Shown here in pieces: positions 2,145 to 16,744 of a stretch of DNA of 16,744 bases (position 1 is its first letter; every line of letters begins with the position of its first letter). The notes beneath the pieces were generated by a model. That model worked only from the letters and a program-made list of their open reading frames with translations, ran no database searches and was not told the DNA's origin. The DNA is from a virus. Its lineage: Duplodnaviria > Heunggongvirae > Uroviricota > Caudoviricetes. The translations under genes and the position numbers were made by a program. Location: positions 1-16,744 of the IMG/VR virus record IMGVR_UViG_2617270976_000015; one strand, 5' to 3'.

Positions 2145-2457
2145 CGGTTACCTTCTCCACTTTCACAGAACATAACGGCACTTCGCTGTCGGATGCTTTT
2201 GCTGTTTGGGATTATCAAAGCGGCAGATATTCTTTCATCTTAAATTTTACGTCTTTATCCTGACTGATGTTTATCCTGTTTGGCTGCGAAATAAATATAA
2301 AATTAATATATATGTTGTAATGATATATTTTTATAAATTATTCCCTGCGTGAATTTTAATAAATTTAATCTATCCCTTTATACGCAATACATTTACTTTC
2401 CTCTTTTGATGATCTTAAATGTCTTATTTTTCGTAATGTGTATAACAAGGAATAGTG

Positions 2458-2973: not shown

Positions 2974-2988
2974 TAATCAGGAGGAGTC

Positions 2989-3528
2989 ATGAAGAAAGTT
3001 TTTCTTTGCGCCATCTTAGCCTCCTTAAGCTATCCGGCTATCGCCTCATCATTGCAGGATCAACTCTCTGCTGTCGCAGAAGCGGAACAGCAAGGTAAAA
3101 ATGAAGAGCAAAGGCAGCATGACGAATGGGTCGCGGAGCGCAACAGGGAAATCCAGCAAGAGAAGCAACGTCGCGCAAATGCCCAGGCCGCCGCTAACAA
3201 AAGAGCGGCAACGGCAGCGGCAAATAAGAAAGCTCGTCAGGATAAACTGGACGCCGAAGCCTCTGCGGACAAAAAACGCGATCAAAGTTATGAAGATGAG
3301 CTACGCAGCTTAGAGATTCAGAAACAAAAACTGGCGCTGGCGAAAGAAGAAGCCCGCGTTAAGCGAGAAAACGAATTTATCGATCAGGAACTGAAGCACA
3401 AAGCTGCGCAAACCGATGTGGTGCAATCTGAAGCTGACGCCAACAGAAATATGACTGAAGGCGGTCGCGATCTGATGAAAAGCGTGGGCAAAGCAGAAGA
3501 GAACAAATCGGACAGCTGGTTTAATTAA
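2989..3528 (+). CDS. yfgI: secreted charged coiled-coil protein (YfgI-like)
   Basis: Strong AGGAGG 4 nt upstream of ATG 2989; N-terminal signal peptide MKKVFLCAILASLSYPAIA; Glu/Lys/Ala/Gln-rich helical body. Gene symbol is from recollection of the K-12 yfgF-yfgI locus. Confidence 0.65.
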   Translation: MKKVFLCAILASLSYPAIASSLQDQLSAVAEAEQQGKNEEQRQHDEWVAERNREIQQEKQRRANAQAAANKRAATAAANKKARQDKLDAEASADKKRDQSYEDELRSLEIQKQKLALAKEEARVKRENEFIDQELKHKAAQTDVVQSEADANRNMTEGGRDLMKSVGKAEENKSDSWFN

Positions 3529-3566
3529 TCGATGTTAGTAACTTCAATCCTATAATTCTTGAAGAT

Positions 3567-3599
3567 AAAAAACCCTCTGTAGTAACAGAGGGTTTTGTT
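3567..3599. terminator. bidirectional rho-independent terminator at the host/prophage junction
   Basis: Perfect 8-bp stem CCCTCTGT (3573-3580) / ACAGAGGG (3585-3592) with 4-nt loop, flanked by an A-run (3567-3572) and TTTTGTT (3593-3599). Confidence 0.75.
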
Positions 3600-3745
3600 C
3601 ATTCATAGTGCAGGGTCAAATCATTCCCACTCAATTATTTACGATAACCATAACCAATTGAGTGATAACATTTTTCCAAATCTCAATTTTTCCCGTACCG
3701 TTTTATATACCGTCACCGGAAATCAGTACCGTGAAAAATGCCATG

Positions 3746-4228
3746 CTATCTGGTCAGGGTGTCGTACTGTTTTTCGCAGACTCTTCCGGCTTCGGATGCC
3801 CGGTCAGCATACTCTGCCAGTTGTCTATTTCTCTCGAGAGATTTGCTGAACACGTCGGAAAGCAAAACTCCGGTGTCTGCGGCTGACGACCCAGCGCCGA
3901 CAATGGCGTTATAGTGCCTGAGCTGCTCACGGATGGCAACGAGCTGTTGCTGCAACCGGCCAGCGCGAGCGGCAGCATCAAGAGCATCATTGCGCGCCTG
4001 GTCGATCCTCTGCTGCGCTTCACGTTCATTAGTCACTTTCTCCTGTTCGTAGTGCTGACGAACTATCTCATCTTCAGCTTTGCGGTCTTTCTTCGCCTGC
4101 GCATACCCGGCATCGTACTGACGACTGCCGTGTGCATTCCAGGCTACAACTCCTGATATGACCAGAACAGCAAGCATCGCCATGATAACCAACTGTTTCC
4201 AGTATGCTTTTGCGAATGCCCAGATCAT
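3746..4228 (-). CDS. Rz-like i-spanin
   Basis: N-terminal TM helix followed by a charged coiled-coil body; directly after the endolysin gene (start ATG overlaps the endolysin stop at 4225-4228); contains the embedded Rz1-like ORF. Confidence 0.7.
3754..4029 (-). CDS. Rz1-like o-spanin lipoprotein embedded in the +1 frame of Rz
   Basis: Track ORF lies entirely inside Rz in another frame; signal peptide with lipobox LALAGCS and a Pro/Ser-rich mature part. The true start may be the internal Met at about 3990. Confidence 0.6.
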   Translation of the reverse strand: MNVKRSRGSTRRAMMLLMLPLALAGCSNSSLPSVSSSGTITPLSALGRQPQTPEFCFPTCSANLSREIDNWQSMLTGHPKPEESAKNSTTP

Positions 4229-4854
4229 ACCGCCAGCACCTTACTGGCAGTGATGTACCGCGCGCGCCGGTCGTCGATGCCGTTCCGGCCACCATTGATA
4301 ATCAGAGTTACACGTGCAATATCGCCGGTATACTTCATGCATCCTTTGCTGGCGAAGAACCACGCCGCGCTACGAGCCGCATATTCGTCCTGCGCCAGCA
4401 GTTCAGGGCTCTCCAGCAGGTCAACCTTCAGGCCGTTTCCGCAATCACGATAGTTATTCAAACCGGTAATCTGGATAAGTCCGCGCCCTCGGTAATTCCA
4501 GCCATCACCAGGGGCATTGTTCCCCATGCGTTTGCTGTACACCAGATTGGCGATCGCACGCTGGCGCTCCAGAGGCAGAGACTTCTCATATGCTTTTCGT
4601 CCCAGCGTGCTGGCCTGGTCCGGCGTGATGCGTCCGGCACGGATAAACCCGGACAGTCCATTAACGCTGTAGTTGAAGTTTTCCTGTAACCGGGTAAATC
4701 CTCCGGACTCATGCCCGACCTGCGCGATAAACATCGCCTGGTCATCTGGTTTGATAATGCCAAACTCATTCATGGCAGCAGTGATATGCAGAAACCAGCG
4801 TGCGGCCAGCGCCTCGCTAATACCAGCAGCTCGCTGGAATTGTTTAATCTCCAT
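4225..4854 (-). CDS. endolysin, glycoside hydrolase family 19 (class I chitinase-like) type
   Basis: Start chosen at the internal ATG 4854 ([20 protein letters not shown]...) with GAGGT upstream; the longer track ORF (to 5019) would overlap the upstream gene. Motif [22 protein letters not shown] is recalled as the GH19 phage-lysin signature. Confidence 0.8.
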
Positions 4855-5152
4855 GTTTAGACCTCGATACTTTGAAAATTTGAACGACGTTACCGCGCGT
4901 TTTAATAACCGCAGCGAGCATGACAGCGTTGATAATGACCTCAGATAAATCCACAGCCATTGGCGTGCGTAACCAGATTGCATAGGCGACACGAACAGGA
5001 ATACTGGCCGCAGCAACAATCAGGAAATAAGCAAGCCACCCTCCCCATCTTCGGTGTTGTGACCCGTTACGCCGGAATGTGACAACGCGAATTGCTATGC
5101 CAGTACAAATAACTGCATTGGTGATAAGAAAAAAAAGCTCATACGTTGCCAT
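4844..5152 (-). CDS. holin-like / lysis-associated membrane protein (about 3 TM)
   Basis: 102-aa hydrophobic protein; GGGAGA RBS; start overlaps the upstream holin stop and its stop overlaps the endolysin start (translational coupling typical of lysis cassettes). Confidence 0.55.
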
Positions 5153-5543
5153 CGTCTTTTCTCCCCGGAATTAACTCACGTGGATTATCGGAACGGTGAT
5201 AGAGCCAGATGCCAATTCGTACTGCGACGATTGCTGACACGAATGCGCCAGCAGAGAAAACAACCCCTTTCTCGAAAGAGTCCTGCGTGATAGTAGGGAT
5301 CAGGCTAGCTACGCCTATAAGAATTGATGCTGCTGGTTTGTAGAAAAGAAGCCCACAGAGAAAGCTAAGCATCGACAAGAGTACGCGACGACTAATTGGG
5401 TACTCCACCGCAGAGGTAACAAAAATCACCGCTCCTGACAAAGACCCCAACGCTACTTCTGGAGGTACTCCTGCTATCACCGCAGCTAGAGAACCAAGAC
5501 TAAGCCATTGATTTAATGTTTCACTGGTTAGTTGAACTGACAT
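5139..5543 (-). CDS. holin-like membrane protein with possible dual start (GTG 5552 / ATG 5543)
   Basis: 3-4 predicted TM helices; first gene of the lysis cassette; N-terminus M-V-S-M gives two in-frame starts as in dual-start holin/antiholin genes; GGTGG upstream of ATG 5543. Confidence 0.6.
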   Translation of the reverse strand: MSVQLTSETLNQWLSLGSLAAVIAGVPPEVALGSLSGAVIFVTSAVEYPISRRVLLSMLSFLCGLLFYKPAASILIGVASLIPTITQDSFEKGVVFSAGAFVSAIVAVRIGIWLYHRSDNPRELIPGRKDDGNV

Positions 5544-5958
5544 AGAAACCACCGTTTACTGTGCATAAAGACCCACCTTAGTTGGTGAGTCCATCATACA
5601 CAATTAATACATATATGGTTTAATTGAAATCCCCAAAAACATTCTGAATAGGTGAGGTGTTTTCTGGCTCCATAGCTATGACGTGGCTTTTGATGCCTAA
5701 CTTTATAAGGTGCCACGACAATGTGATAGGTACATAGGATTCAGTTACCAATGCAAAGCTTTGTGTGTCTCAGTTTTGTCTCATGCCAACCCAGTAGAAT
5801 CAATCTACTTAATCTCTCTGCAGTGAATATTTTGTTTGCACGCAATTGCACATGATGAACTGGCGCTTATGATAATTTCTGACGGTGATCTGATGGGAGT
5901 GAAAGTGCGGCTATCTGATGATACAATGCTCTTCAAAATAAACAGTTAGGTGATTTTT

Positions 5959-7002
5959 ATGTTGGTCAAAGATGCGCTAAAAAGGGATAACAATAACCTT
6001 GACTTAATACGTATTTTTTGTGCAATTTCTGTAATATTTGCCCATTCATATTATCTTGCAAATTCTGATGGAGCCCAGGAGCCGGTTCAGTCTGTTTTCA
6101 CATTTACATATACTGGTTCCATTGCTGTAAAAATATTTTTCTTTATTAGCGGAATGCTTGTAACTAATAGTTTATTAACAACGCGAAACATACCACACTT
6201 TATTTCATCTAGATTTTTTAGAATATTCCCCGCATTCATTTTTGTTTTATTATTCGCGACATTCATTGTTGGACCATTACTTACAACGCATTCAATGACA
6301 TCTTATTTAAAAGATACGCTGACGTACAGCTATCTATTTAAAAGCTCATATTTGGATATGCAATTTTTTCTTCCTGGTGTTTTTGAGGAAAATATATATA
6401 AAAGCTCAGTTAATGGTTCTTTATGGACAATACCATATGAAGTTGCATCTTATGTCGTGCTCCTAGCATGCTACATGATAACTCAGAGCAGAGGAAGAAT
6501 AATGCCTAGCATCATATGCTTATCAATAATAGCGCTTCCAGTATTGGGATGGAACAAATTAATTTTTATAAATAACGATAATGCAGATGTGTTTTTAATG
6601 GCTCCATGCTTTGCTCTTGGCGCATTGTATGCTATAAACAAGGACAAAATATACATTTCACTACATGCACCAATAGGATTTGCAATATTATATAATTTTG
6701 TGTCAGAACCAACACTCAAGCATATGCTTTTTTATTTTTGCGCATGTACATTTTTCGTATATTTATCAACAACAAAAATAATAAAATCAATAAGAATAAA
6801 ACATGATGTATCATATGGCGTTTACTTGTGGGGCTTTTTAATACAGCAGATAACATTCAGGTTATTACCTGATATAAATCTGTACTTAAATCAAGTTTTA
6901 TGCATAGCACTATCACTTATTGCTGGACTGATATCATTTATTGCGATAGAAAAACCAGCAATGGATATTGGGAAAAAGATATCAAACAAATTCAGATATT
7001 AG
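5959..7002 (+). CDS. acyltransferase family 3 integral membrane protein (Oac/OafA-like O-antigen acetyltransferase, membrane domain only)
   Basis: ATG 5959 with AGGTGA 7 nt upstream (track ORF starts at GTG 5950). About 10 TM helices; N-terminal RIFCAISVIFAHS resembles the conserved Arg/His motif of AT3 acyltransferases. Extremely AT-rich codon usage, which looks horizontally acquired. Confidence 0.75.
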   Translation: MLVKDALKRDNNNLDLIRIFCAISVIFAHSYYLANSDGAQEPVQSVFTFTYTGSIAVKIFFFISGMLVTNSLLTTRNIPHFISSRFFRIFPAFIFVLLFATFIVGPLLTTHSMTSYLKDTLTYSYLFKSSYLDMQFFLPGVFEENIYKSSVNGSLWTIPYEVASYVVLLACYMITQSRGRIMPSIICLSIIALPVLGWNKLIFINNDNADVFLMAPCFALGALYAINKDKIYISLHAPIGFAILYNFVSEPTLKHMLFYFCACTFFVYLSTTKIIKSIRIKHDVSYGVYLWGFLIQQITFRLLPDINLYLNQVLCIALSLIAGLISFIAIEKPAMDIGKKISNKFRY

Positions 7003-7004
7003 AT

Positions 7005-7030
7005 AAAAAGGGGCTTTCAGCCCCTTTTTT
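7005..7030. terminator. bidirectional rho-independent terminator between the convergent acyltransferase and beta-helix genes
   Basis: AAAAAGGGGCT-TTC-AGCCCCTTTTTTTT: GC stem 7010-7015 / 7019-7024 flanked by an A-run and a T-run. Confidence 0.8.
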
Positions 7031-8014
7031 TTACGTGGTAGTTGCGGATACCTTCCATTCACCAGTTGATACGTATGTCCACTTCCACGGTCCGGTAGAA
7101 ACCGGACCAAGCAATTCCCACTTGGTGCCAAACGGGAAATTAGTTGTATCTCCCGTGGGTGGTGATACTGATAGAACCGTTATATATCCTGACTCAAGTC
7201 TGCATAATGCAGTCCATGATGAGTTTCCGGTTATACTATAGGTGCCGCCTGAATCAACCTTGTTGATCCAGCTCTGCCCACTCCCCCATCTAATAGAATC
7301 AGTGGTGTTGTCGGGAATTACCGCACCATTAAAATTTGCAGTTGCATCATTAAGATATATGTATTTGCTAGATGAGACTCCAGAGTAACCAGAAAAATGA
7401 GATGAAACCAATGAGATGAAACACGATTCCAGAGATACAGCTTCAACTCCTCCATCATGATGATTAACCACTCTAAATGCAGTTACGTTAATTCGACTAC
7501 CATTTATATCAAATATTTTACCAGTGCCTTCTTCGCTTCCGCATCCAGATAGATTTACTCCAGTACAATCTTTAAATTTATAGCCAGTACCATTAACGAA
7601 GTCAGCAGCCAAACAAGTCAGGCTGCTATATGTAATGTTATTAAAATCATATGCAACACCTGAACATGTTTTCACATAAATATTCTTTAAATTATATGTG
7701 GTTCCACCTGCTTCGATTTTAACTCCAGTAACGACATCCTGAATAGTAATGTTTTCCCATGTCTGCAACCAGCTATCACTAGTGCGATAACCGGTTTTCA
7801 CCCTATGAATATACAGGTCCTGAAGGCGCACATTGTAACTGATAGCGCTATATATCCCGTAATCACAAGGATTGGGCGCAGTATTTAGAATACTCAATCC
7901 AATTATTCTGGTGCTTCTTGTTTGTTTCCCGCTTAAATCACCTGATGTGTCACTATCCATATCTACCGCAACAATAAAGTCTTTGGAGAAGCTGTGTGGT
8001 ACACCCTGCCACAT
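7031..8014 (-). CDS. right-handed beta-helix (pectate-lyase-fold) protein resembling a tailspike/depolymerase receptor-binding domain; possibly a remnant
   Basis: Ser/Thr/Gly/Asn-rich sequence with repetitive short beta-strand motifs (for example NLKNIYVKTCSGVAYDFNNITYSS, GTGKIFDINGSRINV). No signal peptide, weak RBS; its frame is open for only 17 codons upstream of the Met and overlaps the upstream ORF. Confidence 0.45.
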   Translation of the reverse strand: MWQGVPHSFSKDFIVAVDMDSDTSGDLSGKQTRSTRIIGLSILNTAPNPCDYGIYSAISYNVRLQDLYIHRVKTGYRTSDSWLQTWENITIQDVVTGVKIEAGGTTYNLKNIYVKTCSGVAYDFNNITYSSLTCLAADFVNGTGYKFKDCTGVNLSGCGSEEGTGKIFDINGSRINVTAFRVVNHHDGGVEAVSLESCFISLVSSHFSGYSGVSSSKYIYLNDATANFNGAVIPDNTTDSIRWGSGQSWINKVDSGGTYSITGNSSWTALCRLESGYITVLSVSPPTGDTTNFPFGTKWELLGPVSTGPWKWTYVSTGEWKVSATTT

Positions 8015-8382
8015 GCGATCCGGAACGGTTTTAATATCGTTACGCGCTGTTTTGCAGCATCCAGTTCAATCGACAATTTTTCCAACTGCTCTTTATGCTT
8101 TTTATATTCCTGATATGCGTGCCAGGACTGACCTTTGCGCACACTATCAGTAATATCAGTAATCTGTTCTGGTGTTAGCGTGGTCAGTGGCTGTGCTGGG
8201 AAAATCAGCACTTTCCCGGAATCCCAATCAAAACCAGCGTGAATTGACTGAACCTCAACTGAGGGTGTTGAACCAATGCTGCCAGGCGAATAAACAACGA
8301 TCGTTACATCCATATCGCGACGATGGCTGTGGTTGTTGGACAAAATACGATTCACCAACTCAGAAAATTTGGAGAATTTCAT
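7963..8382 (-). CDS. hypothetical phage protein (139 aa) with C-terminal coiled-coil; may be the N-terminal part of a frameshifted tailspike-like gene
   Basis: ORF with ATG at 8382; 52-nt overlap in a different frame with the beta-helix ORF. No motif I recognise. Confidence 0.4.
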   Translation of the reverse strand: MKFSKFSELVNRILSNNHSHRRDMDVTIVVYSPGSIGSTPSVEVQSIHAGFDWDSGKVLIFPAQPLTTLTPEQITDITDSVRKGQSWHAYQEYKKHKEQLEKLSIELDAAKQRVTILKPFRIACGRVYHTASPKTLLLR

Positions 8383-8390
8383 GCGGAGCC

Positions 8391-8801
8391 TCAGTATGTA
8401 AAATAGACAGTTGCCACGCCGTTATAGTGATCAAACGATACGGCATTTACTTCATAGCTGGCGGGGAGCTTCGATCCGAGAACGTATCCGGGCCACTTTT
8501 TCCATGGAATTTCTCTGCGCTCACTATCGCCATATACCGTACATCCCAGTGAGCCTACAGCTTCACCAGAACGTGTGCCGCACGTTATGAATCCAAGATT
8601 TTGCTTACTGGCCTTAATAGCGATCGATGGAGTACTAACCGATGCATTGGCTGCTCTATTCGCCTGTTGGCTTGCAATAGCTGCGGAATTAGCAGCTGCA
8701 ACAGCAGCAGTGGTCGCGGCGGTAGAGGCAACAATAGCTGCTGAAGCATGCACTTGTTGGATATTCACCAACAATGCCGCCACAAAAATCATCTTCTTCA
8801 C
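8391..8801 (-). CDS. secreted protein of unknown function (signal peptide, Ala-rich linker, C-terminal domain with two Cys)
   Basis: GTG start at 8801 with AAGGAG 7 nt upstream, overlapping the upstream stop (GTGA). N-terminus MKKMIFVAALLVNIQQVHA looks like a Sec signal peptide. Confidence 0.55.
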   Translation of the reverse strand: MKKMIFVAALLVNIQQVHASAAIVASTAATTAAVAAANSAAIASQQANRAANASVSTPSIAIKASKQNLGFITCGTRSGEAVGSLGCTVYGDSERREIPWKKWPGYVLGSKLPASYEVNAVSFDHYNGVATVYFTY

Positions 8802-9442
8802 TTGTCAGCTCCTTTGCGAATCTGTTCCGCCCATTCTTCAAGGGATTTCTCCGCATATTCACCGGACAGGCCATCAATCGGGTGCGGTTCATTAGCCAAC
8901 TCTTCTTTCGCTGACAGAATCATGCGCGTAACGTCGAAAACTTCACGTAAAGACTTATTGATAAATCCGTGATTGAACGCAGCAGCAAGACGGCTTGCGG
9001 TATAGTTAATCCCCTCGTTGCGAGCCTCCGCCCGAATTTCAGCCGTGAAGGCGTCGGTTGCTGACATAGACAGTGCTGATTTAGCATCAAACATGAGCGA
9101 CGCTGCGGGATTGATTGACTTCTCCTCTGGAGAAATACCGCTCATTGCAAATTGGTTTATCATGCGTTCAACCACTTCACGCAATGCCGCATTCTCCGCC
9201 GCCAGCGCCGAAAACTTCTCGTGTGCCAACTTAACAGCTGCATCAGCCTGCTTAATTGACTCAATCGCTTTCTGCTGGTCTTCGGCCATCGCATTAGCAC
9301 GCACCAGTTGCACTTCCAGTTGCGTTGCCAAATCGCTGATCAGCTTTGCCACACTGCGCATATCAACGGCACCACATTCTGCTTTCAGTTCCGAAGCCAT
9401 CTCATGCCCGGCGGCAACTAACCCTTTGATATTACTTTCCAT
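8798..9442 (-). CDS. hypothetical cytoplasmic helical protein (214 aa), nin-position gene
   Basis: ATG 9442 with GAGGG RBS; predicted helical with Ala/Glu/Lys-rich coiled-coil-like segments; no Cys-rich zinc-finger as in lambda Q. Confidence 0.5.
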   Translation of the reverse strand: MESNIKGLVAAGHEMASELKAECGAVDMRSVAKLISDLATQLEVQLVRANAMAEDQQKAIESIKQADAAVKLAHEKFSALAAENAALREVVERMINQFAMSGISPEEKSINPAASLMFDAKSALSMSATDAFTAEIRAEARNEGINYTASRLAAAFNHGFINKSLREVFDVTRMILSAKEELANEPHPIDGLSGEYAEKSLEEWAEQIRKGADK

Positions 9443-9503
9443 CTTTACCCTCGCTTATCCACATAACTTATTGATTGCATTGATAACTAAAAAGATCGTC
9501 GAT

Positions 9504-9848
9504 TCAGAACTCTTCGATGTTCCAGCCACCACCTGCTTTCTTTGGTTTAACCGTTACCCCGATGATTCGGAACGGATACTGATCTGCGGCGACTTTGGTT
9601 TTCACCCTGGCGTCGTCGGTCCAGAAACCTTTCACTTCGTGCAGTTCCATCTCGCCGGTGGCGAGCATCACAGCAAAATCGGGCGTATAGAACGTGTTGT
9701 CAGCTAACCGCAGCTTGATACCCTCAAATCGATACCAGACGATTTCTCCTGCACGTTTACGCAACTCAAGGTGCTGGCAATACGCAGATTCTGTTTTGTT
9801 CATCTGGCCTGTTTTGAGTCGACCAAGAGCCTGTATCTGTTTTCTCAT
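9504..9848 (-). CDS. small PD-(D/E)XK-motif protein (DUF1064-like), putative nuclease
   Basis: ATG 9848; motifs YTPDFAV and ELHEVKG fit a PD...(D/E)xK nuclease core; position just after the replication genes. Family name is from memory. Confidence 0.5.
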   Translation of the reverse strand: MRKQIQALGRLKTGQMNKTESAYCQHLELRKRAGEIVWYRFEGIKLRLADNTFYTPDFAVMLATGEMELHEVKGFWTDDARVKTKVAADQYPFRIIGVTVKPKKAGGGWNIEEF

Positions 9849-9851
9849 AAT

Positions 9852-9929
9852 TTACCCCTGAGGTAATTAAAAACCACATAAGACACGAAATCAATATGGT
9901 TTAGAATATTTTGTTACCCAGCAGGTAAC
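9852..9929 (-). promoter_or_regulatory. operator-promoter-operator unit: two TTACC-N5-GGTAA palindromes (9852-9866, 9913-9929) flanking a leftward -35 TTGATT / -10 TTTAAT
   Basis: Both palindromes match the operator consensus found at the repressor gene perfectly; their centres are 62 bp apart, the same spacing as the pL-like pair at 12957-13033. The -35/-10 reading is approximate. Confidence 0.5.
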
Positions 9930-9965
9930 TATCAAGGCGTAAAAAAATGCGCTATCGCGCTGGTA

Positions 9966-10766
9966 TTACTTGATAAATCCTGCCGCCTTTCCCCGCCTGT
10001 ATTCCTCCATCAGCCACTGTGCCGGTGTTATTCCCCCCAATGTGGCGGCGTTAGGCATACACCCGAAACTTCGCCCTGGTGGATGGTAAACGTCTCTCCC
10101 TGTGTCCGGAGGCGTACTCATGGGTTCTGGCTTTGCCTGTATGCTGATCACCGGATCGGGTATCTGCTGTCCGGAAGCTACCTTTTTCGCCCAATCATCG
10201 AGCAGCCTGCGCGCGTGTTTCTCAACCTCAATCTCGCTAAACTGGCGCTGATACATTGCACGGCGGGTATCACATACGACCCAGTACATAACCGGATGTC
10301 GCCACGGGAATCTTTCGGGACCACCAGGATATAAACTTTTTTCCTTGCTGTACCGGTGAAACTCCGCCATCACATCGTCAATGGTGACGCCAAGAACCAT
10401 CTTGCTGTCTTTACACCACTTGATGAATTGCCCTGGCGACGGCCAGAACGGAGATTCACTGGCGCGGGCGTGGCGCATACCAGCAGAAACCTGTTCACGG
10501 GTTCGGATCCCCCCTTCGGCAAACGCAGCAATCCACTGCTGTTTTGCAGCAACTTCCTGCTCTGGAGTCTTCAGGTTGGTTACTACTGCCGCCGGAAACA
10601 GTTGTTTCAGCTGTTTGAAAAGGGCATCAACAAGCCTCTCTGCTGACATGTTCACCACATTGTCATTGTTGACGTACTGATGCTCATAACCTGACATGCG
10701 AGAAAGGGCTTCTCCGTCACGGTTTTGTATCGCGGTAAAAACGTTGTTCACAAGAAATCCTCCCAC
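9966..10766 (-). CDS. lambda P-like replication protein (DnaB helicase loader)
   Basis: Conserved block WIAAFAEGGIRTREQVSAGMRHARASESPFWPSPGQFIKWC parallels lambda P (…NGITTMEQVNAGMRVARRQNRPFLPSPGQFVAWC) as I recall it. Start taken as the GTG at 10766, overlapping the O-like stop; the start is uncertain. Confidence 0.8.
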   Translation of the reverse strand: MGGFLVNNVFTAIQNRDGEALSRMSGYEHQYVNNDNVVNMSAERLVDALFKQLKQLFPAAVVTNLKTPEQEVAAKQQWIAAFAEGGIRTREQVSAGMRHARASESPFWPSPGQFIKWCKDSKMVLGVTIDDVMAEFHRYSKEKSLYPGGPERFPWRHPVMYWVVCDTRRAMYQRQFSEIEVEKHARRLLDDWAKKVASGQQIPDPVISIQAKPEPMSTPPDTGRDVYHPPGRSFGCMPNAATLGGITPAQWLMEEYRRGKAAGFIK

Positions 10767-11563
10767 GCTTCAGGGCTGTTCCAGTGCGGAACGTTGTTAT
10801 CAGGTAATGTTGATTGCTTCTGTCTGCTAATCTGCAGCCGCCTTGCCAGCTTCTGCTCCCACTGTGCCTGATGGTATGCCTTACCCTCAGCCATCCAGTA
10901 AATTCTGAACTCTGCAAGCTCCTGTGCCGTTGGCAGACTGTCCAGGTAGATCCCCTGCAATGAGCTTTTCCGAAGAAAGTCATCTGATGGCTGCCATTGT
11001 TCATGCATGACAAATTTGCCTAATTGCCCTGGCCCACCAGGAGGAACAAAGTTATTCATCACGGCGTTGTTTGCGCCGGGGTCATGAGGCACAGAATCCC
11101 CGCTTTTTGTCCTGCTCTCCCTCTCTTGGTTAAATGACTGGTTATATGACTGGTTCTGGATCCCGTTTTTGGGATCATTCAACATCCCGTTTTTGGGATC
11201 ATTCAACATCCCGTTTTTGGGTATATTCCCGTTTTCGGTAACATTACCGTTTTCGGGTTCATTACCCCCTTCCCGGTTGCCTTTAATGTTTCCGTTTTTG
11301 GTTATATTAAGAGAGAAAACCCGCACTCTTTTCGTCGCACCCTTTCTCTCTCCGGTATCTGAAATAAGCCCCATTTTCATGAGCGATATAAGCCCGGCCT
11401 GCACGGTTTTTTTATTCAGGCAAGTGTCTTTAACGAGGCGTTCTATGCTGGGGTAGCAGAGGTTATATTCATCGGCTCTGTCAGCCATCGAGAGCAGTAT
11501 GAGCTTTAATGACGAGCTACCTGGATCTGTCTCCCAGGCCCAATCTGTTGCATGTCTGCTCAT
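10748..11563 (-). CDS. lambda O-like replication initiator (N-terminal HTH domain, internal repeat/iteron-encoding linker, C-terminal domain)
   Basis: ATG 11563 with GGAG RBS; N-terminal LKLILLSMADRADEYNLCYPSIERLVKDTCLNKKTVQAGLISLMKMGLI looks like a helix-turn-helix; the mid-gene tandem repeats encode NGMLNDPKNGMLNDPKNG; placed directly before the P-like gene. Confidence 0.7.
   Translation of the reverse strand: MSRHATDWAWETDPGSSSLKLILLSMADRADEYNLCYPSIERLVKDTCLNKKTVQAGLISLMKMGLISDTGERKGATKRVRVFSLNITKNGNIKGNREGGNEPENGNVTENGNIPKNGMLNDPKNGMLNDPKNGIQNQSYNQSFNQERESRTKSGDSVPHDPGANNAVMNNFVPPGGPGQLGKFVMHEQWQPSDDFLRKSSLQGIYLDSLPTAQELAEFRIYWMAEGKAYHQAQWEQKLARRLQISRQKQSTLPDNNVPHWNSPEAWEDFL
11161..11308. 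repeat. array of about 7 direct repeats (18-24 bp, core CCGTTTT(T)GG) inside the O-like gene; candidate replication-origin iterons
   Basis: Two perfect 24-bp units TCCCGTTTTTGGGATCATTCAACA at 11161-11184 and 11185-11208, then degenerate units to about 11308; a 10-bp direct repeat ATGACTGGTT x2 follows at 11133-11154. Confidence 0.65.
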
Positions 11564-11578
11564 GATTAATCTCCGCTA

Positions 11579-11779
11579 TCAGCTTGAATGTTGTGGGGAG
11601 GAATTAATCATGATCTGCTTAATCTCTGCCCTGATGCGACGGTTTGATTCCATAGTGCACTCAACACAGTGTCCGTTGTAAACCCAGCGTTCACTGTCAT
11701 GTCCGTGCTTACATGGTTTTCCGGTGTAGTAGCGTTTAAGTCCGCGCTTTGCGGCATCAATACGTGTAATAATTTCCAT
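11579..11779 (-). CDS. small zinc-ribbon-like protein at the cII position
   Basis: Cys/His cluster GKPCKHGHDSERWVYNGHCVEC; stop is 15 nt upstream of the O-like start. Start ambiguous: ATG 11779 chosen; the track ORF extends to a TTG at 11842. Confidence 0.4.
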   Translation of the reverse strand: MEIITRIDAAKRGLKRYYTGKPCKHGHDSERWVYNGHCVECTMESNRRIRAEIKQIMINSSPQHSS

Positions 11780-11888
11780 GGTAAGCCCTGTTATTAGTAT
11801 TGGGATTACGGTCATTTTGTGCTGACACAAAAAAAAGATCAACCAGATTTGGTTTTTTATTACCTTTGAGGTACGAATAGATATGAAA

Positions 11889-11908
11889 AGACCGCCGGAT
11901 GGCGGTCT
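11889..11908 (-). terminator. GC-rich hairpin after the cro-like gene (tR1-position terminator candidate)
   Basis: Perfect 8-bp stem AGACCGCC / GGCGGTCT with a 4-nt loop, 22 nt after the cro-like stop; followed on the minus strand by UUUCAUAUCUAUU, a weak U-tract. Confidence 0.4.
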
Positions 11909-11929
11909 ACAGAGGGTTGTGGATGGATA

Positions 11930-12160
11930 TCATGAGTAGAAGAAGTATGCCAGTTCTGCTTTTGAGCGCAGCCATTGTCTTGTTTTACAGGCTTTAAAAA
12001 GCCCATTCATCAATACTTTACCTGGCATTTTGCGCTTACCTGTTAAGTGAGTCTGGATATAATGACTCGTCGTTCCGGCTTCCTGTGCGAAGGCTTCACG
12101 CTCATCCGGAGTAAGTGCAAGCCAGTGCTTTTTGAAATCGAAATGTCCGTTATCGCTCAT
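11930..12160 (-). CDS. Cro-like small HTH regulator
   Basis: 76-aa protein divergent from the repressor gene across a 154-bp operator region; segment EAFAQEAGTTSHYIQTHLTGKRK resembles the Cro/CI-type HTH pattern; first gene of the cro - cII-position - O - P series. Confidence 0.5.
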   Translation of the reverse strand: MSDNGHFDFKKHWLALTPDEREAFAQEAGTTSHYIQTHLTGKRKMPGKVLMNGLFKACKTRQWLRSKAELAYFFYS

Positions 12161-12314
12161 AGCTATTGCCTGATATTTATTTCAGATAATAAATATTCAC
12201 CCATAAGGTAACAAAAATCAAGGATAGTTACCTGTGGGGTGCATTTACCTATTGGGTAATATTGCTTTAAATTGAATCATCTACTGATTCATATATGAGG
12301 CGATTTTCCAGAAA
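12161..12314. promoter_or_regulatory. divergent promoter/operator region (OR-like) between the cro-like and repressor genes
   Basis: Contains TCACC-cataa-GGTAA (12197-12211), half-site GTTACC (12227-12232) and perfect TTACC-tattg-GGTAA (12245-12259); AT-rich promoter-like sequence on both strands. Confidence 0.6.
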
Positions 12315-12899
12315 ATGAAAAGTATCCAGGACGTCCGCAGGCAAAATCTCAACGACTTGATCGACCGTGAATTCAATGGTGTTCAGACGCGGATGGCTGA
12401 AAAACTTGGAACTCAGGCAAATCTGGTAAACCGCTGGGCTCTTGGCAAGAAGGTTATCGGCGACCAGGTTGCGCGAAAAATTGAAGCTGCCGCCAATAAA
12501 CCCCGTAACTGGCTTGATATCGATCGCTCGCTTTCTCAGGAAGGTTTTCAGCCTGTCGGCCCAAGCGACATTGGTCAGCTGGCGGCTCACAACCTGGAAC
12601 GCTGGATGAGCGAAAGCCGCGACCTTTCAACACAGGGAAAACTTCACCGCGCATCCGGCGTCGCCCAGGTGACAATCAGCCGCCTGTTAAACAATGAGGT
12701 CAGCGTTTCCATTTCCACCCTGGAGAATGTTGCATCTGCATTCGGGCGTCACGGATATGAACTACTGATTCACCCGCACGACCCTGCAACTATCAACTAT
12801 GACCGCTCGCGCTACGCATTGTTACCTGAAACCGAGAAAGCAAAGATCGAAAGTTACATTGAATTTGTCATCAACCAGAACGAAAAAAACAAACAATAA
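12315..12899 (+). CDS. prophage repressor (CI-like function), HTH protein without a recognisable S24 autopeptidase domain
   Basis: N-terminal HTH-like segment GVQTRMAEKLGTQANLVNRWALGKK and a second HTH-like segment ASGVAQVTISRLLNNEVSVSISTLENVASAF; divergent from the cro-like gene; flanked by the palindromic operators; I do not see the Ser/Lys motifs of LexA/CI-type C-terminal domains. Confidence 0.65.
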   Translation: MKSIQDVRRQNLNDLIDREFNGVQTRMAEKLGTQANLVNRWALGKKVIGDQVARKIEAAANKPRNWLDIDRSLSQEGFQPVGPSDIGQLAAHNLERWMSESRDLSTQGKLHRASGVAQVTISRLLNNEVSVSISTLENVASAFGRHGYELLIHPHDPATINYDRSRYALLPETEKAKIESYIEFVINQNEKNKQ

Positions 12900-12919
12900 A
12901 ATAATACTTTTCAGTAAGT

Positions 12920-12943
12920 AAGCCGCCTTCTGGTGGCTTTTTT
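12920..12943 (+). terminator. rho-independent terminator after the repressor gene
   Basis: Stem AAGCCGCC / GGTGGCTT (one G-U pair) with loop TTCT, followed by TTTTTT. Confidence 0.65.
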
Positions 12944-12956
12944 ATTGCCTATACTA

Positions 12957-13033
12957 TTACCTAATGGGTAATTTTTTTAACTCATATCTATTGACACCAA
13001 ACCAAATACGCATAATTATTACCTCAACGGTAA
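12957..13033 (+). promoter_or_regulatory. pL-like early promoter flanked by two operators (TTACC-taatg-GGTAA 12957-12971; TTACC-tcaac-GGTAA 13019-13033), -35 TTGACA at 12991-12996
   Basis: Two perfect 15-bp palindromes 62 bp apart bracketing a consensus -35 hexamer and an AT-rich -10 region, directly upstream of the first early ORF (13053). Confidence 0.6.
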
Positions 13034-13052
13034 CAGACCGAGGTAACAAGTT

Positions 13053-13205
13053 ATGCAGTGGAAAATCATCAACGGTTGGTACTGCGTTACTGCATGCGGA
13101 TTCATGAGCTGGAAGTTCCGCACCTTACAGGAAGGCATTAAGTGGGCTTTCGTCAGCAAAGAAGCTCGCGATGTGGCCAACGATAACGAGATATGGGAGG
13201 GCTGA
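13053..13205 (+). CDS. small Trp-rich protein (50 aa), first gene of the pL-like operon
   Basis: Not in the ORF track (under 60 aa). ATG 13053 with GAGGT 8 nt upstream; stop TGA immediately precedes the next gene's ATG; translation MQWKIINGWYCVTACGFMSWKFRTLQEGIKWAFVSKEARDVANDNEIWEG. Confidence 0.45.
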   Translation: MQWKIINGWYCVTACGFMSWKFRTLQEGIKWAFVSKEARDVANDNEIWEG

Positions 13206-13207
13206 TA

Positions 13208-13507
13208 ATGAACGTTAATCAGCAGAAAAATCTTCAAAAAATCATGCTGGTATTCGACAAGGACTACCGCCTGTCAGAACAGCTATATGACCGACAAGTT
13301 GAACTGATTGAGAGCATCCGACTTCATCAAATGTCCTCAACTTTTGACGCTGTAACAGGCAAAGGAGTTCGCCAGGAAGTGCTGGAGGCAGCTAAAGACA
13401 GCCCTGAGTTCGAAGAACTTATGGATGCCTACCGGCGCGAGGCAATGGCAATTATCGCCCGCTGGGATCTGGCGGATCAGCTTGATGGACAGAGGGACGC
13501 GGCATGA
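13208..13507 (+). CDS. hypothetical early protein (about 99 aa) in the position occupied by gam in lambda
   Basis: ATG 13208 with GGGAGG 8 nt upstream (track ORF starts at 13193); acidic helical protein; stop overlaps the start of the exonuclease gene (ATGA). Confidence 0.5.
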   Translation: MNVNQQKNLQKIMLVFDKDYRLSEQLYDRQVELIESIRLHQMSSTFDAVTGKGVRQEVLEAAKDSPEFEELMDAYRREAMAIIARWDLADQLDGQRDAA

Positions 13508-14325
13508 ATCCGGGAATTTATTTCGATATCAGCAACGAAGACTACCACGCCGGTGACGGCGTGAGTAAGTCGCAACTGGACATGGTTGCCAAGAATCCGG
13601 CGCTTCTTAAATGGGTTCAGGCAGCACCAGAAGACGAAGAGAAAAAGTCTGCACTGGCTATGGGAACCGCATTGCACTGTCTGCTTCTGGAGCCTGGAGA
13701 GTTCGACAAACGCTTCATTGTTTCACCGAAATTCGATCGTCGGACGAAACAAGGTAAAGCTGACGAAGAGGCATTTCTTCGTGATGTGGCGGATATGGGG
13801 ATTACGGTACTTGATGCCGAGCAGTGGCGGAAACTGGAGCTGATGCGTGATAGCGCAATAGCTCATCCGGCGGCACGCTGGATGTTGGAAGCACCTGGTT
13901 ACTGCGAAGCATCAATGTACTGGAACGATGAAGAGACGGGTGAGTTGTGCCGAATTCGTCCAGACAAATGGCTGAACGAGCACAACGTGATCGTCGACGT
14001 GAAAAAGGTTGCAGATATTGACCGTTTTGCACGCCACATCGAGGAATTCCGCTACCACGTGCAGGACGCAATGTACCGCGAAGGCGCAATGAGGGTTACT
14101 GGTCAGCCGCATGGTTTTTTCTTTCTTGCCGTGAGCGAAAGCATTGATTGTGGTCGGTATCCGGTACGCGTGTTCGAGCTGGATGCGCCAGATGTCGATG
14201 CCGGGCACGCTCTGTTCCGCCGGGATCTGAATACCTATCACGAATGCCGCATCAACGATGAATGGGGCGGAGTGGAAATTATTAAACGCCCTGACTGGGC
14301 ACGTAAACAGGATATGTACGTATGA
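13504..14325 (+). CDS. PD-(D/E)XK-family recombination exonuclease (exonuclease VIII-like / DUF3799-type), partner of the annealing protein
   Basis: Motif region RIRPDKW...IVDVKK fits a D...(D/E)xK nuclease core; translationally coupled to the downstream Bet/RecT-like gene. Does not resemble lambda Exo as I recall it. Confidence 0.6.
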   Translation: MNPGIYFDISNEDYHAGDGVSKSQLDMVAKNPALLKWVQAAPEDEEKKSALAMGTALHCLLLEPGEFDKRFIVSPKFDRRTKQGKADEEAFLRDVADMGITVLDAEQWRKLELMRDSAIAHPAARWMLEAPGYCEASMYWNDEETGELCRIRPDKWLNEHNVIVDVKKVADIDRFARHIEEFRYHVQDAMYREGAMRVTGQPHGFFFLAVSESIDCGRYPVRVFELDAPDVDAGHALFRRDLNTYHECRINDEWGGVEIIKRPDWARKQDMYV

Positions 14326-15203
14326 GCAATGATATCGCAATCACATCACAACCAGGCGCAACTGTAGGCACTGCTGCGGCAATATTCAGCCCCGAGGGCA
14401 TGAATCAACTGGTTCGTTTCGCGGAGTTGATGTCACAAAGCAAAGCGACTGTACCGAAACATCTTGAAGGCAAACCTGCCGATTGTCTGGCGGTGACCAT
14501 GCAGGCGGCACAGTGGGGAATGAACCCTTTCGCCGTGGCGCAGAAAACGCATGTGGTAAACGGAACGTTAGGCTACGAAGCACAGTTGGTAAACGCGGTC
14601 GTATCCTCTTCCAGCCTGCTAGCGACACGCCTGAATTATCGCTGGAGCGGTGACTGGTCGAATGTTAACGGCAAAACAGATAAATCACCGAATCTGACGG
14701 TAACTGTGTCAGCAGTTCTTAAAGGAGAAGCAGAACCCCGTGAGCTTACCATCAGTATGGCGCAAGCCGGAGTGCGTAACTCTCCATTGTGGGAACAGGA
14801 TCCGCGTCAGCAACTTGCCTATCTTTGCACGAAACGATGGGCTCGCCTGCACGCTCCTGATGTACTTCTCGGTGTTTACACACCAGACGAATTACAGGAA
14901 ACGGCACCGCGCGTTGAGCGAGACATTACTCCGCAAACGACCACTGCTGCGGGAATGAACAGTCTGATCAACGCTAAACCAGCGAAAAAGCCTGATGAGC
15001 AAACGCGTAAAGCGGATAGCCGTGATCCAGAAGAAATGCTGATGGCCTTTACCAGCGCAGCGATGAATTACAGCACTGTCTCCGAACTGGATAAGGCTTA
15101 CAAATACATTGCACAAAAACTTTCAGATGATGACGAACTGCTGGCAAAAGCCACCGACGTTTACAGCGTTCGTCGGGAAGAATTAAACGAAACATCTATG
15201 TAA
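14322..15203 (+). CDS. single-strand annealing protein of the Bet/RecT (Red-beta) family
   Basis: Segments ADCLAVTMQAAQWGMNPF and ETAPRVERDITPQTT parallel lambda Bet (DAQFIALLIVANQYGLNPW, TAERQPERDITPVNDET) as I recall it. Confidence 0.75.
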   Translation: MSNDIAITSQPGATVGTAAAIFSPEGMNQLVRFAELMSQSKATVPKHLEGKPADCLAVTMQAAQWGMNPFAVAQKTHVVNGTLGYEAQLVNAVVSSSSLLATRLNYRWSGDWSNVNGKTDKSPNLTVTVSAVLKGEAEPRELTISMAQAGVRNSPLWEQDPRQQLAYLCTKRWARLHAPDVLLGVYTPDELQETAPRVERDITPQTTTAAGMNSLINAKPAKKPDEQTRKADSRDPEEMLMAFTSAAMNYSTVSELDKAYKYIAQKLSDDDELLAKATDVYSVRREELNETSM

Positions 15204-15252
15204 CCACCACCGCGGCGCCACGCGCGCCGCACTGCAACCAAGAGAGGTATTT

Positions 15253-15501
15253 ATGAAAGGTGCATTAGGTAAGAAGGAACTCCTGGCGGTGGTGCCACTG
15301 TCATGGAGCACTATCGACCGTATGGAGCGCGCAGGGGAATTTCCTAAACGCTGGTATATCACCGATAAACGCTGCGCATGGAACCGTGATGAAGTTGAGC
15401 GTTGGCTTGATGAACGTCAGGCAGCAAGCCCGGCAGAGTTCCAGGGTAAAAAACCTCCTGTTCAGCAACGTGTATATCGTCCCGTGAGCAACGCGGCATG
15501 A
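15253..15501 (+). CDS. AlpA-family HTH DNA-binding protein (prophage regulatory / excisionase-like)
   Basis: 82 aa; pattern LSWSTIDRMERAGEFPKRWYITDKRCAWNRDEVERWL matches the AlpA/Xis-type winged-helix signature (STIYR...G.FP......W...EV..W); AGAGAGG RBS. Confidence 0.65.
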   Translation: MKGALGKKELLAVVPLSWSTIDRMERAGEFPKRWYITDKRCAWNRDEVERWLDERQAASPAEFQGKKPPVQQRVYRPVSNAA

Positions 15502-15610
15502 GTGTGCTGCTAAGGCACTGGAGCAAATGGTCAGGATGGTACTTATTCCTGGCCTCTGTTTCAGCATGGCTTTATCTGCTGGCATTAATTTTCAGAGAGG
15601 GTTGGATTAA

Positions 15611-15910
15611 GTGAGAAAGTTAAGCCGACTTGAAAAATATCACATGAACAAGGTTTCAATGCGCAGTCCGTCAAAGATTGTCGCCGTTACTCCTGCGGCG
15701 ATAGAGATCGAAAAACGCGCGATTGAAAGAGAGAAAAAAGGGCAGTTCCGCATTGCCGCTCACCTTTGGCTTCAGTGTATGGATGTTGCTTCTGGTGATG
15801 TTGAGCGTGCAAGGATCGCGGTTCGCAGGGACCAATGTATCACAAAAGGTAACGGCCTTCGCCGTGGCGACTATAGCGGCATAGGATGTTGTGGGGTGGT
15901 TTATGACTAA
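15611..15910 (+). CDS. PerC-like small transcriptional regulator (start uncertain: GTG 15611, ATG 15644 or ATG 15659)
   Basis: Core RIAAHLWLQCMDVASGDVERARIAVRRDQC resembles the PerC-family pattern; recollection-based. Confidence 0.4.
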   Translation: MRKLSRLEKYHMNKVSMRSPSKIVAVTPAAIEIEKRAIEREKKGQFRIAAHLWLQCMDVASGDVERARIAVRRDQCITKGNGLRRGDYSGIGCCGVVYD

Positions 15911-16553
15911 GAAATACACACTAATCTATGCAGATCCCCCCTGGGTATACCGGGACAAAGCCGCAGATGGTAATCGCGGTGCCGGTTTTAAATATCCGGT
16001 TATGAGTGTGCTGGATATCTGCCGCCTTCCTGTGTGGGATTTGGCCGATGAAAACTGTCTGTTGGCCATGTGGTGGGTGCCAACACAACCACTCGAAGCA
16101 CTAAAAGTTGTTGAAGCCTGGGGATTCCGTCTGATGACCATGAAGGGCTTCACGTGGATAAAATGTGGTAGTCGACAACCAGATAAACTGGTTATGGGTA
16201 TGGGACACATGACTCGCGGCAATAGTGAAGATTGCCTGTTTGCGGTAAAGGGAAAACTACCTACGCGCATTAATGCAGGGATCGTTCAGTCATTTACCGC
16301 ACCGCGGCTTGAGCATTCAAGAAAACCAGATATCGTTCGTGAAAAACTTGTGCAATTGTTAGGCGATGTTTCTCGCATTGAACTGTTCGCCCGCCAGTCG
16401 TCTCATGGCTTCGATGTTTGGGGTAATCAGTGCGAAGACCCGGCCGTGCAACTACACCCAGGATACGCGTTGGATATTGGCGGATTAACAAATTCATTCA
16501 GCAATGCTCCGCTGTCACCAACAGACAACCAGGGGCGGGAGCGTGCAGCATGA
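15903..16553 (+). CDS. MT-A70 family DNA N6-adenine methyltransferase
   Basis: N-terminal YADPPW (the DPPW catalytic motif) right after the ATG at 15903 (track ORF starts at GTG 15891); about 216 aa, the usual size for phage MT-A70 methylases. Confidence 0.8.
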   Translation: MTKKYTLIYADPPWVYRDKAADGNRGAGFKYPVMSVLDICRLPVWDLADENCLLAMWWVPTQPLEALKVVEAWGFRLMTMKGFTWIKCGSRQPDKLVMGMGHMTRGNSEDCLFAVKGKLPTRINAGIVQSFTAPRLEHSRKPDIVREKLVQLLGDVSRIELFARQSSHGFDVWGNQCEDPAVQLHPGYALDIGGLTNSFSNAPLSPTDNQGRERAA

Positions 16554-16744
16554 ACAGGGCATCACCAGCAGATTTAAGGAAATGCCTTGAAACTGCAAAC
16601 ATGCTTGCACACAGCGGGATCAGGTTTGTTCCTGTTCCCGCTGTCACTGATGCTGAATTTGCAACACTGTCAGCAATATTCGCAGACAAAATTGAATCAC
16701 TGGCAGCAGAAGCCGAGATGGAAGAAAATCAGCAGAATAATTAA
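16550..16744 (+). CDS. hypothetical small acidic phage protein
   Basis: ATG 16550 overlaps the methyltransferase stop (ATGA); 64 aa, ends with a TAA at the window edge; the longer track ORF from 16430 lies inside the methyltransferase gene in another frame. Confidence 0.45.
   Translation: MNRASPADLRKCLETANMLAHSGIRFVPVPAVTDAEFATLSAIFADKIESLAAEAEMEENQQNN

Follow-up and report, generated by a model that had tools for sequence, protein, structure and literature searches.

The locus and its phage element

The stretch of DNA considered here, referred to as the window at its full length of 16,744 nt, comes from the tailed-phage record IMGVR_UViG_2617270976_000015 and matches one end of the draft contig JNQT01000014.1 (assembly GCA_000704325.1) with 100.000% identity; positions in the locus taken from that contig (L005) are converted by window position = 18383 – L005 position. 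From left to right the window holds the end of an IS1 element, the Escherichia coli genes pdeF, yfgG, yfgH and yfgI, and then phage DNA up to its right edge, comprising a lysis cassette, an acyltransferase gene, a fragment of a tailspike gene, nin-like, replication and cro-like genes, and a divergent repressor gene followed by an operon with recombination and methyltransferase genes (Table 1). The phage element is best read as a cryptic Uetakevirus prophage, that is, one of a phiV10/epsilon15-like podovirus, which is inserted at guaA and has been gutted by a single internal deletion; this reading is given a probability of about 0.9.

A preliminary description of the window had presented the element as a defective lambdoid prophage that lies next to yfgI, lacks morphogenesis genes and stops right after Rz/Rz1. 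Its starting point is borne out: phage DNA does adjoin yfgI, and the prophage is defective, with no usable morphogenesis genes and no virion module. Several annotated E. coli chromosomes match the host flank (333-3616) at 100% identity, in agreement with the Pfam families detected in it, and the match also confirms the interrupted pdeF and the naming of yfgG, yfgH and yfgI.

Attachment sites and boundaries

The boundaries of the prophage follow from a comparison with an uninterrupted yfgI region, a check that the preliminary description had itself recommended. The empty yfgI-guaA site of E. coli K-12 (attB) has the same host sequence as the window up to a 17-bp core, ATTGAGTGGGAATGATT, which is found at 3619-3635 in the window (attR), at L005 179-195 at the guaA stop (attL), and once in phiV10, at 26720-26736, in the interval between Rz and int (attP). 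When the four sites, K-12 attB, window attR, contig attL and phiV10 attP, are aligned, the arms prove to be exchanged exactly around this core. The same 17-mer is the attP core of phiV10, epsilon15 and ZX5, and insertion at guaA's 3' end has been shown (PMC9782041); at the present locus, too, integration at the 3' end of guaA restores the guaA stop codon. The prophage thus starts at 3619, the first base of the core, and not at 3567, where its left boundary had been placed.

Nor does the element end at position 16,744. Beyond the right edge of the window the source contig continues, with no interval, into a full-length integrase gene, attL and the 3' end of guaA, and the expectation that int would be found on that side is thereby fulfilled. 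The integrase is encoded beside the attachment site and is a close relative of phiV10 Int (Table 1). The prophage extends from 3619 to the window equivalent of ~18204, ~1.46 kb past the right edge, and measures ~14.6 kb, as against 39.1 kb for phiV10. A Shigella converting phage of the thrW/argW type was also considered as the source of the element, and is ruled out by the attachment sites and the integrase.

The stem-loop between yfgI and the phage genes had been described as a bidirectional terminator at which the prophage meets the host. It does part yfgI from the phage DNA, but an identical sequence is present at the empty K-12 site, which makes it the native guaA/yfgI terminator and thus host DNA. 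The phage carries a near-copy of this hairpin beside attP, on the int side (L005 ~236-270; phiV10 ~26780-26813), in which the stems are identical to those of the host hairpin (AACCCTCTGT...ACAGAGGGTT) and the loop alone differs; integration therefore gives back to guaA not only its last codons but a terminator as well. In E. coli mip270_04 (L008 5741-8329) two genes with DUF262 domains lie downstream of yfgI, with neither guaA nor a Uetakevirus prophage there, and the yfgI-guaA interval therefore receives other islands too.

Gene order and family

When positions 3500-16744 were searched against a phage collection, the matches were phiV10, ZX5, phiv142-3, TL-2011b and the O157 typing phages 9 and 10, with 94-97% nucleotide identity over 56-74% of the query, and relatives from Enterobacter and Salmonella with 76-81% identity. 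phiV10 (NC_007804) aligns to 72% of this region at 94.5%; ~25 kb of its genome is absent from the element, so that no whole-genome criterion can be applied.

The phiV10 map runs from terS, terL, portal, capsid, tail/ejection genes, Bro and tail fibre (+) to oac (–), a membrane protein, holin, endolysin, Rz/Rz1, a terminator and the integrase (+); it continues with DUF1382, methylase, PerC, AlpA, RecE/T, two small open reading frames (ORFs) and the repressor, and then with cro, p42, initiator, P, DUF1064 and the nin-like genes back to terS. The genes of the window are collinear with this map, the oac/tailspike segment excepted. An intact prophage at the same site in E. coli EC0026B has the order yfgI, Rz, endolysin, holin, holin, acyltransferase, tail fibre, Bro and structural genes, and the element shares with both phiV10 and EC0026B the succession of tail fibre, conversion gene, two holins, endolysin of glycoside hydrolase family 19 (GH19), Rz/Rz1, attP and int. 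Because attP sits between Rz and int in the phiV10 family, the position of Rz beside attR and yfgI is the native end of the prophage, and the order of the intact EC0026B prophage shows that the native place of the structural genes is between the nin-like genes and the tail fibre.

This order bears directly on the earlier proposal, in which a prophage with the gene order of lambda lost its late region (terminase to tail, which would normally lie downstream of Rz) by truncation at the yfgI end, perhaps with IS1 involved. The proposal builds on a genuine resemblance, since the repressor and the leftward operon lie on the + strand and cro, the O-like gene, P, the nin-like genes and the lysis cassette on the – strand, as in lambda, and it accommodates the lack of head and tail genes in the window and the IS1 at 1-331. 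The strand arrangement stands, but the organisation is that of phiV10 and epsilon15: the nin-like genes do not pass directly into lysis genes, as had been stated, for the tailspike fragment and the acyltransferase gene, which that account omitted, lie between them. Rz is directly followed by an intact attR core, an end also found in phiV10 and EC0026B, so that the element is not cut off there; int is transcribed opposite to the leftward operon; Pfam and PHROG searches find no Q homologue, and no S24 domain is present in the repressor; the genes cut short at 8043/8044 point to a deletion inside the element, and IS1 lies outside the prophage. Neither the late order of lambda (Q, S, R, Rz, terminase/head/tail, attR) nor a CI-type repressor with a RecA-stimulated S24 domain is present, and a truncated lambda-ordered prophage is accordingly considered very improbable.

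Probable loss of the structural genes by an internal deletion

At 8043/8044 the homology of the window changes abruptly. Compared base by base, the sequences on either side switch with no more than 3 bp of microhomology, the two sequences do not overlap, and no IS sequence is present at the junction. Missing at this point are the rest of the nin-like region, terS, terL, the portal, protease and capsid genes, the tail/ejection genes, Bro and the 5' part of the tailspike gene, all of which are present in the intact relatives (2015C-4944, L004; L010; phiV10). On the nin side the deletion leaves a 139-aa ORF in which PHROG 6026 matches residues 1-113 only, and on the other side the 3' part of the tailspike gene. 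Every gene retained elsewhere in the element is full length when compared by tblastn with phiV10, 2015C-4944 and AST205.

From these comparisons the structural genes are judged to have been lost by one internal deletion of ~25 kb through illegitimate recombination, and not from beyond Rz. The part of IS1 in the loss had been called impossible to determine from the window, yet it can be decided: IS1 lies within pdeF, 3.3 kb beyond the end of the prophage and at a distance of 7.7 kb from the junction, and because of this distance and of the lack of IS sequence at the junction it had no part in the loss. No terminase, portal, capsid or tail-tube gene is found in the window, and the epsilon15-type virion module (terminase, portal, capsid, tail) is absent by deletion; the statement that there are no morphogenesis genes holds to this extent, but has to be amended for the tailspike 3' fragment at 7031-8043. 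The element is thus phage-derived DNA flanked by attL and attR, without a terminase, portal or capsid gene and with a truncated tailspike, as is proper to a defective prophage.

The junction itself is present in 0 of 5426 complete E. coli genomes, and an exact search for its 30 nt in one genome per species gave no match, although this second negative carries little weight, E. coli and Shigella being presumably represented there by one or few genomes. Since the contig is a draft that ends in IS1, and a P22-like module matches the oac/tailspike segment at 98.6% identity, the junction might be a chimera of assembly, in which case the strain would have an intact Uetakevirus prophage and perhaps a separate P22-like one. 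Assemblers, however, misjoin at shared repeats, and no more than 3 bp are shared here; at its other end the segment stops at the native oac position beside the holins, as in the relatives; and the contig is continuous from guaA to pdeF. An artefact of this kind therefore appears highly unlikely.

The size of ~14.6 kb, the integrase, the AlpA-like protein, the replication module of its own and the two att sites would also suit a phage satellite, an island of the type of the phage-inducible chromosomal islands (PICI) that by nature has no structural genes and depends on a helper Uetakevirus for its mobilisation. Against such an origin, the retained genes are collinear with, and 67-100% identical in amino acid sequence to, their counterparts in phiV10 or intact prophages (oac/tailspike excepted), two genes are truncated at one junction, the lack of this junction in the complete genomes does not fit a spreading lineage, and Pfam and PHROG searches of the window found no capsid-redirection or small-terminase gene. 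We hold a satellite to be scarcely credible here.

The acyltransferase/tailspike segment

The region where collinearity with phiV10 is interrupted, 5748-8043, corresponds at 98.6% nucleotide identity to the acyltransferase-tailspike module of a P22-like prophage at argW in E. coli VE-T9 (L003 20001-22296), a module found in one of the 5426 complete genomes. The tailspike fragment belongs to no family in Pfam or PHROGs and has 47.6% amino acid identity to Kuttervirus tail proteins; it is identified by its 98.6% nucleotide match to the annotated 605-aa tailspike of VE-T9, whose N-terminus (residues 4-124 of the full-length protein) matches the head-binding domains of the Sf6/P22 tailspikes in PDB. 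A cassette for receptor binding and O-antigen modification is thus common to two unrelated podovirus families.

The acyltransferase gene has a GC content of 30-33% in the GC profile, and its position and orientation are those of phiV10 oac; its product has 27-30% amino acid identity to phage acetyltransferases, Sf6 Oac among them. In phiV10, oac acetylates the O antigen and acts in superinfection immunity (phiV10 annotation; PMC9782041). By analogy, the acyltransferase of the window, which is a different protein, may modify the O antigen of the host in the same way.

Table 1. Features of the window and of the adjoining source contig, in window positions unless marked L005.
Feature	Position	Strand	Remarks
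IS1 end	1-331		insA ORF 1-276, – strand; 99-99.7% identical to annotated IS1 copies
pdeF, interrupted by IS1	327-1601	–	423-424/747 codons left; source contig stops at IS1
yfgG	1953-2144		
yfgH	2455-2973		
yfgI	2989-3528		
Host guaA/yfgI convergent terminator stem-loop	3569-3596		Bacterial side of attR, outside prophage; terminator scan
attR core	3619-3635	–	Copy of last guaA codons and stop
Rz-like i-spanin, 160 aa, DUF2514	3746-4228	–	Pfam E=1.5e-42; full length, 89% aa identical to phiV10 p30
Rz1-like o-spanin lipoprotein ORF within Rz, 91 aa	3754-4029	–	LAGC lipobox; translation; 93% aa identical to phiV10 p30a
Endolysin, GH19, 209 aa	4225-4854	–	PF00182; full length, 89% identical to phiV10 p29
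Holin, Phage_holin_3_7, 102 aa	4844-5152	–	Pfam E=5e-27; full length vs phiV10 p28
Second holin-like membrane protein, Phage_holin_8, 134 aa	5139-5543	–	Pfam; 91% identical to phiV10 p27
Acyltransferase-3 family gene, putative O-antigen O-acetyltransferase (lysogenic conversion)	5959-7002	+	phiV10 oac position; PF01757 E=8.6e-26
Tailspike 3' fragment, ~337 codons, part of receptor-binding domain	7031-8043	–	N-terminal ~268 codons deleted
Truncated nin-region gene, 139-aa ORF	7963-8382	–	~113 first codons of a 261-aa gene (8044-8382), then out-of-frame tailspike DNA
Deletion junction	8043/8044		~25 kb gone; homology changes from L003 (VE-T9) to L004 (2015C-4944)
nin-region ORF, 136 aa	8391-8801	–	phrog_8805 (unknown function)
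nin-region ORF, 214 aa	8798-9442	–	phrog_614 (unknown function); counterpart of phiV10 p46
DUF1064 protein, 114 aa	9504-9848	–	PHROG label Holliday junction resolvase; 97% identical to phiV10 p45
Lambda-P-family replication protein, 261 aa	9966-10751	–	PF06992 E=2.4e-56; 99% identical to phiV10 p44
Replication initiator, HTH_36 and DnaT domain, 271 aa	10748-11563	–	Pfam; 97% identical to phiV10 p43
66-aa Cys/His-rich ORF in the 'cII position'	11579-11779	–	phiV10 p42 homologue, phrog_1081
Terminator-like stem-loop right after cro-like gene	11889-11908	–	phiV10 terminator annotated at equivalent place
Cro-like regulator, 76 aa	11930-12160	–	100% aa identical to phiV10 p41; phrog_35, transcriptional repressor
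Divergent control region	12161-12314		Operator-like inverted repeats 12195-12261; promoter-like site 12214-12186, – strand; consensus matches only
Prophage repressor, 194 aa, HTH domains	12315-12899	+	Pfam; 100% aa identical to phiV10 p40
Two small leftward-operon ORFs, 50 aa and 99 aa	13053-13507	+	Homologues of phiV10 p39 and p38
PD-(D/E)XK (DUF3799) exonuclease, RecE-like, 273 aa	13504-14325	+	
RecT-family single-strand annealing protein, 293 aa	14322-15203	+	Pfam; 100% identical to RecT of intact 2015C-4944 prophage
AlpA-family protein, 82 aa, putative excisionase/regulator	15253-15501	+	PF05930; PHROG 66 (excisionase and transcriptional regulator); 100% identical to phiV10 p36
Leftward operon end	15498-16744	+	orf38; PerC-family regulator 15659-15910; MT-A70 DNA methyltransferase 15903-16553; DUF1382 protein 16550-16744
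Integrase (just outside window), 418 aa	L005 386-1642		P4-type tyrosine integrase; 412/415 identical (99%) to phiV10 Int

Proposed origin of the remnant

On the reading preferred here, the element would have arisen in two steps. Int-mediated site-specific recombination between the phage attP, situated between Rz and int, and the 17-bp core at the 3' end of guaA would have placed int at the guaA end and the block of tail-fibre, oac and lysis genes at the yfgI end. A later, single illegitimate deletion of ~25 kb would then have fused a nin-region gene and the tailspike gene, each broken in its middle, and so removed the remaining nin-like genes, the terminase, portal, capsid and tail/ejection genes and a Bro-type anti-repressor. 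What such a deletion would leave full length is the immunity region, the O/P-type replication module with its iterons, the RecET-like pair, the AlpA-type putative excisionase, the DNA methyltransferase, the acyltransferase in the oac position, the cassette of two holins, endolysin, Rz and Rz1, Int and both att sites. We infer that the remnant is unable to make particles.

Several points weigh against this account. As the virion module is absent, the assignment to Uetakevirus rests on the early, lysis and integration modules, and some of the early genes, P and the nin-like ones, occur in lambdoid Stx phages as well. The junction comes from a draft assembly. The segment 5748-8043 is closest to a P22-like prophage and not to any sequenced Uetakevirus; that it was already part of the ancestral phage we infer from its position and from relatives that have other acyltransferase and tail-fibre genes there. 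The promoter scans, finally, are uninformative as to the state of the lysis cassette discussed below.

Immunity region and lysis cassette

The immunity region of the element encodes a Cro-like regulator and a repressor that are both identical to the phiV10 proteins (Table 1), and a terminator-like hairpin follows the repressor gene as well, again at a position where a terminator is annotated in phiV10. Judged from this sequence identity, the remnant probably gives immunity of the phiV10 type. In Pfam searches the repressor shows HTH domains only, and no S24 peptidase domain. In ZX5, overexpression of the repressor cut the transcripts of holin and endolysin by >99.9%, and an anti-repressor has been proposed to counteract it (PMC9782041).

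The lysis cassette had been called apparently intact, and indeed Rz, Rz1, endolysin and holins are all full length; the lysis proteins are 80-93% identical in amino acid sequence to those of phiV10 and are encoded in the same order, and the region 332-5516, from pdeF through the lysis cassette to the middle of a holin gene, is 96.9% identical at the nucleotide level to the intact EC0026B locus. Upstream of the holins, consensus scans detect nothing promoter-like on the – strand within 400 bp, but these scans, like the promoter and terminator scans of the window in general, perform at the level of shuffled sequence. The deletion leaves the cassette ~2.5 kb downstream of the early rightward operon and on the same strand. 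With a repressor that lacks a self-cleaving domain, and with the Bro anti-repressor lost along with all other genes from the nin-like region to the tail fibre, the cassette is probably a silent passenger in a remnant locked in repression, and not the active liability that the preliminary description had thought possible. Conversely, the deletion could have coupled the lysis genes to the early rightward operon, in which case de-repression would lyse the cell.

Early, replication and recombination genes

The replication module is of the lambda O/P type, with iteron-like tandem repeats inside the initiator gene (11127-11266) that form a putative origin, although the initiator is of the HTH_36/DnaT type and not lambda O. 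The 66-aa ORF in the 'cII position' has no Pfam match and nothing cII-like about it; it shows a weak likeness to zinc-binding regions of the endonuclease VII type (E=5.6e-4), and not to a cII-like HTH. Among the nin-region ORFs, the 136-aa one begins with hydrophobic residues in the manner of a signal peptide and also contains an Ala-rich stretch; phiV10 lacks this ORF, and the 2015C-4944 prophage has a homologue with 83% amino acid identity.

In the leftward operon the methylase is 98% identical to that of phiV10, and PerC, AlpA and orf50 are 100% identical in amino acid sequence. The RecE-like nuclease and RecT are encoded by separate, overlapping genes in the window and in E. coli prophages, whereas the phiV10 record has a single fused ORF of 586 aa. 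RecT is 74% identical to phiV10 but 100% identical to 2015C-4944, which indicates an exchange of modules in this operon.

Scans of the window against Rfam and for tRNA genes gave no match. In the host flank, a 50-aa ORF between pdeF and yfgG (1783-1935) corresponds to the hypothetical protein WP_000017552.1 of RefSeq genomes, and in strain AF56 an IS1 sits inside the equivalent ORF. IS1 or another IS is found in or beside pdeF in several E. coli genomes with a 100% identical flank, and the pdeF region may be a hotspot for IS elements.

Relatives, frequency and significance

The Uetakevirus attR junction beside yfgI is present in 540 of the 5426 complete E. coli genomes, and at least 80% of the phiV10 portal-to-capsid segment in 518 of them. 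Most occupants of the site are thus probably complete and remnants a small minority, a rough estimate, since the two figures were not matched within individual genomes. The strains AST205, FG31-1 and AF56 carry further remnants, whose internal deletions are different; as in the window, the site, the att sequences, the lysis cassette, the immunity region and int are kept and the head genes are gone. The end points of their deletions differ from the junction of the window: AST205 and AF56 have P' fused to the tail fibre, and in FG31-1 it is O' that adjoins a DUF551..terS remnant. Their acyltransferase and tail-fibre alleles are different too.

That the retained genes are all full length might suggest that the remnant is kept by selection, the acyltransferase, the phiV10-type immunity and possibly a repressor-controlled lysis cassette being useful to the host. 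A recent deletion, however, would leave intact genes too, the three remnant strains were found by their likeness to the window and are a biased sample, and the head module is nearly as frequent as attR, in 518 genomes against 540; such domestication is rather unlikely. It is conceivable, though improbable, that internal deletions, arising independently, have time and again reduced Uetakevirus prophages at guaA to a domesticated island of ~12-15 kb that keeps the acyltransferase, homo-immunity, int/att and a repressor-controlled lysis cassette, either to the benefit of the host or with a prospect of excision, replication, and rescue or packaging by an infecting relative; de-repression of such an island could cause lysis without particles.

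Under the reading of a Uetakevirus prophage reduced by a single deletion, the main value of the analysis is a corrected annotation, in which the element is placed in the phiV10/epsilon15 family and its genes are lost from inside and not from the end. The host would probably be immune to phages of phiV10 immunity, and its O antigen may be altered by a rare acyltransferase; such changes could affect serotyping as well as reporter or therapeutic phages of the phiV10 type. The att sites, Int, the replication genes and the RecET-like pair would form a reservoir of modules for recombination with infecting relatives. None of these consequences is unexpected for a cryptic prophage.

Comparison with known systems

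The closest known systems are phiV10 and, with it, ZX5, phiv142-3, TL-2011b and the O157 typing phages 9/10, which have in common with the element the attP core, the guaA target and the order of the lysis genes. With respect to phiV10, the O, P, DUF1064, exonuclease, AlpA, PerC, MT-A70 and DUF1382 proteins are 97-100% identical and RecT 74%, and the acyltransferase lies between tail fibre and holins in the same orientation; by contrast, the ~25 kb that begin in the nin-like region and end midway through the tailspike gene are missing, with all virion genes and the Bro anti-repressor, and the acyltransferase and the receptor-binding part of the tailspike are unrelated to those of phiV10.

Lambda and the lambdoid defective prophages, such as Rac, DLP12 and Qin of K-12, resemble the element in the divergent repressor/cro switch, a lambda-P-family protein, nin-like genes, the holin-endolysin-Rz/Rz1 cassette and the loss of morphogenesis genes. 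The element differs from lambda in that it has neither Q nor an S24 repressor and in that its P4-type integrase targets guaA; moreover, attP lies between the tail genes and int in lambda and between Rz and int in the family of the element, so that the order of the prophage is permuted.

With Sf6 and the P22-like prophage at argW in VE-T9 the element shares the convergent tailspike/acyltransferase module. Nothing else in it is P22-like, the tailspike is reduced to its C-terminal 337 codons, and the acyltransferase is ~27% identical to Sf6 Oac. The element is, in sum, a further deletion derivative of a well-known phage family, and its biology is of a known kind.

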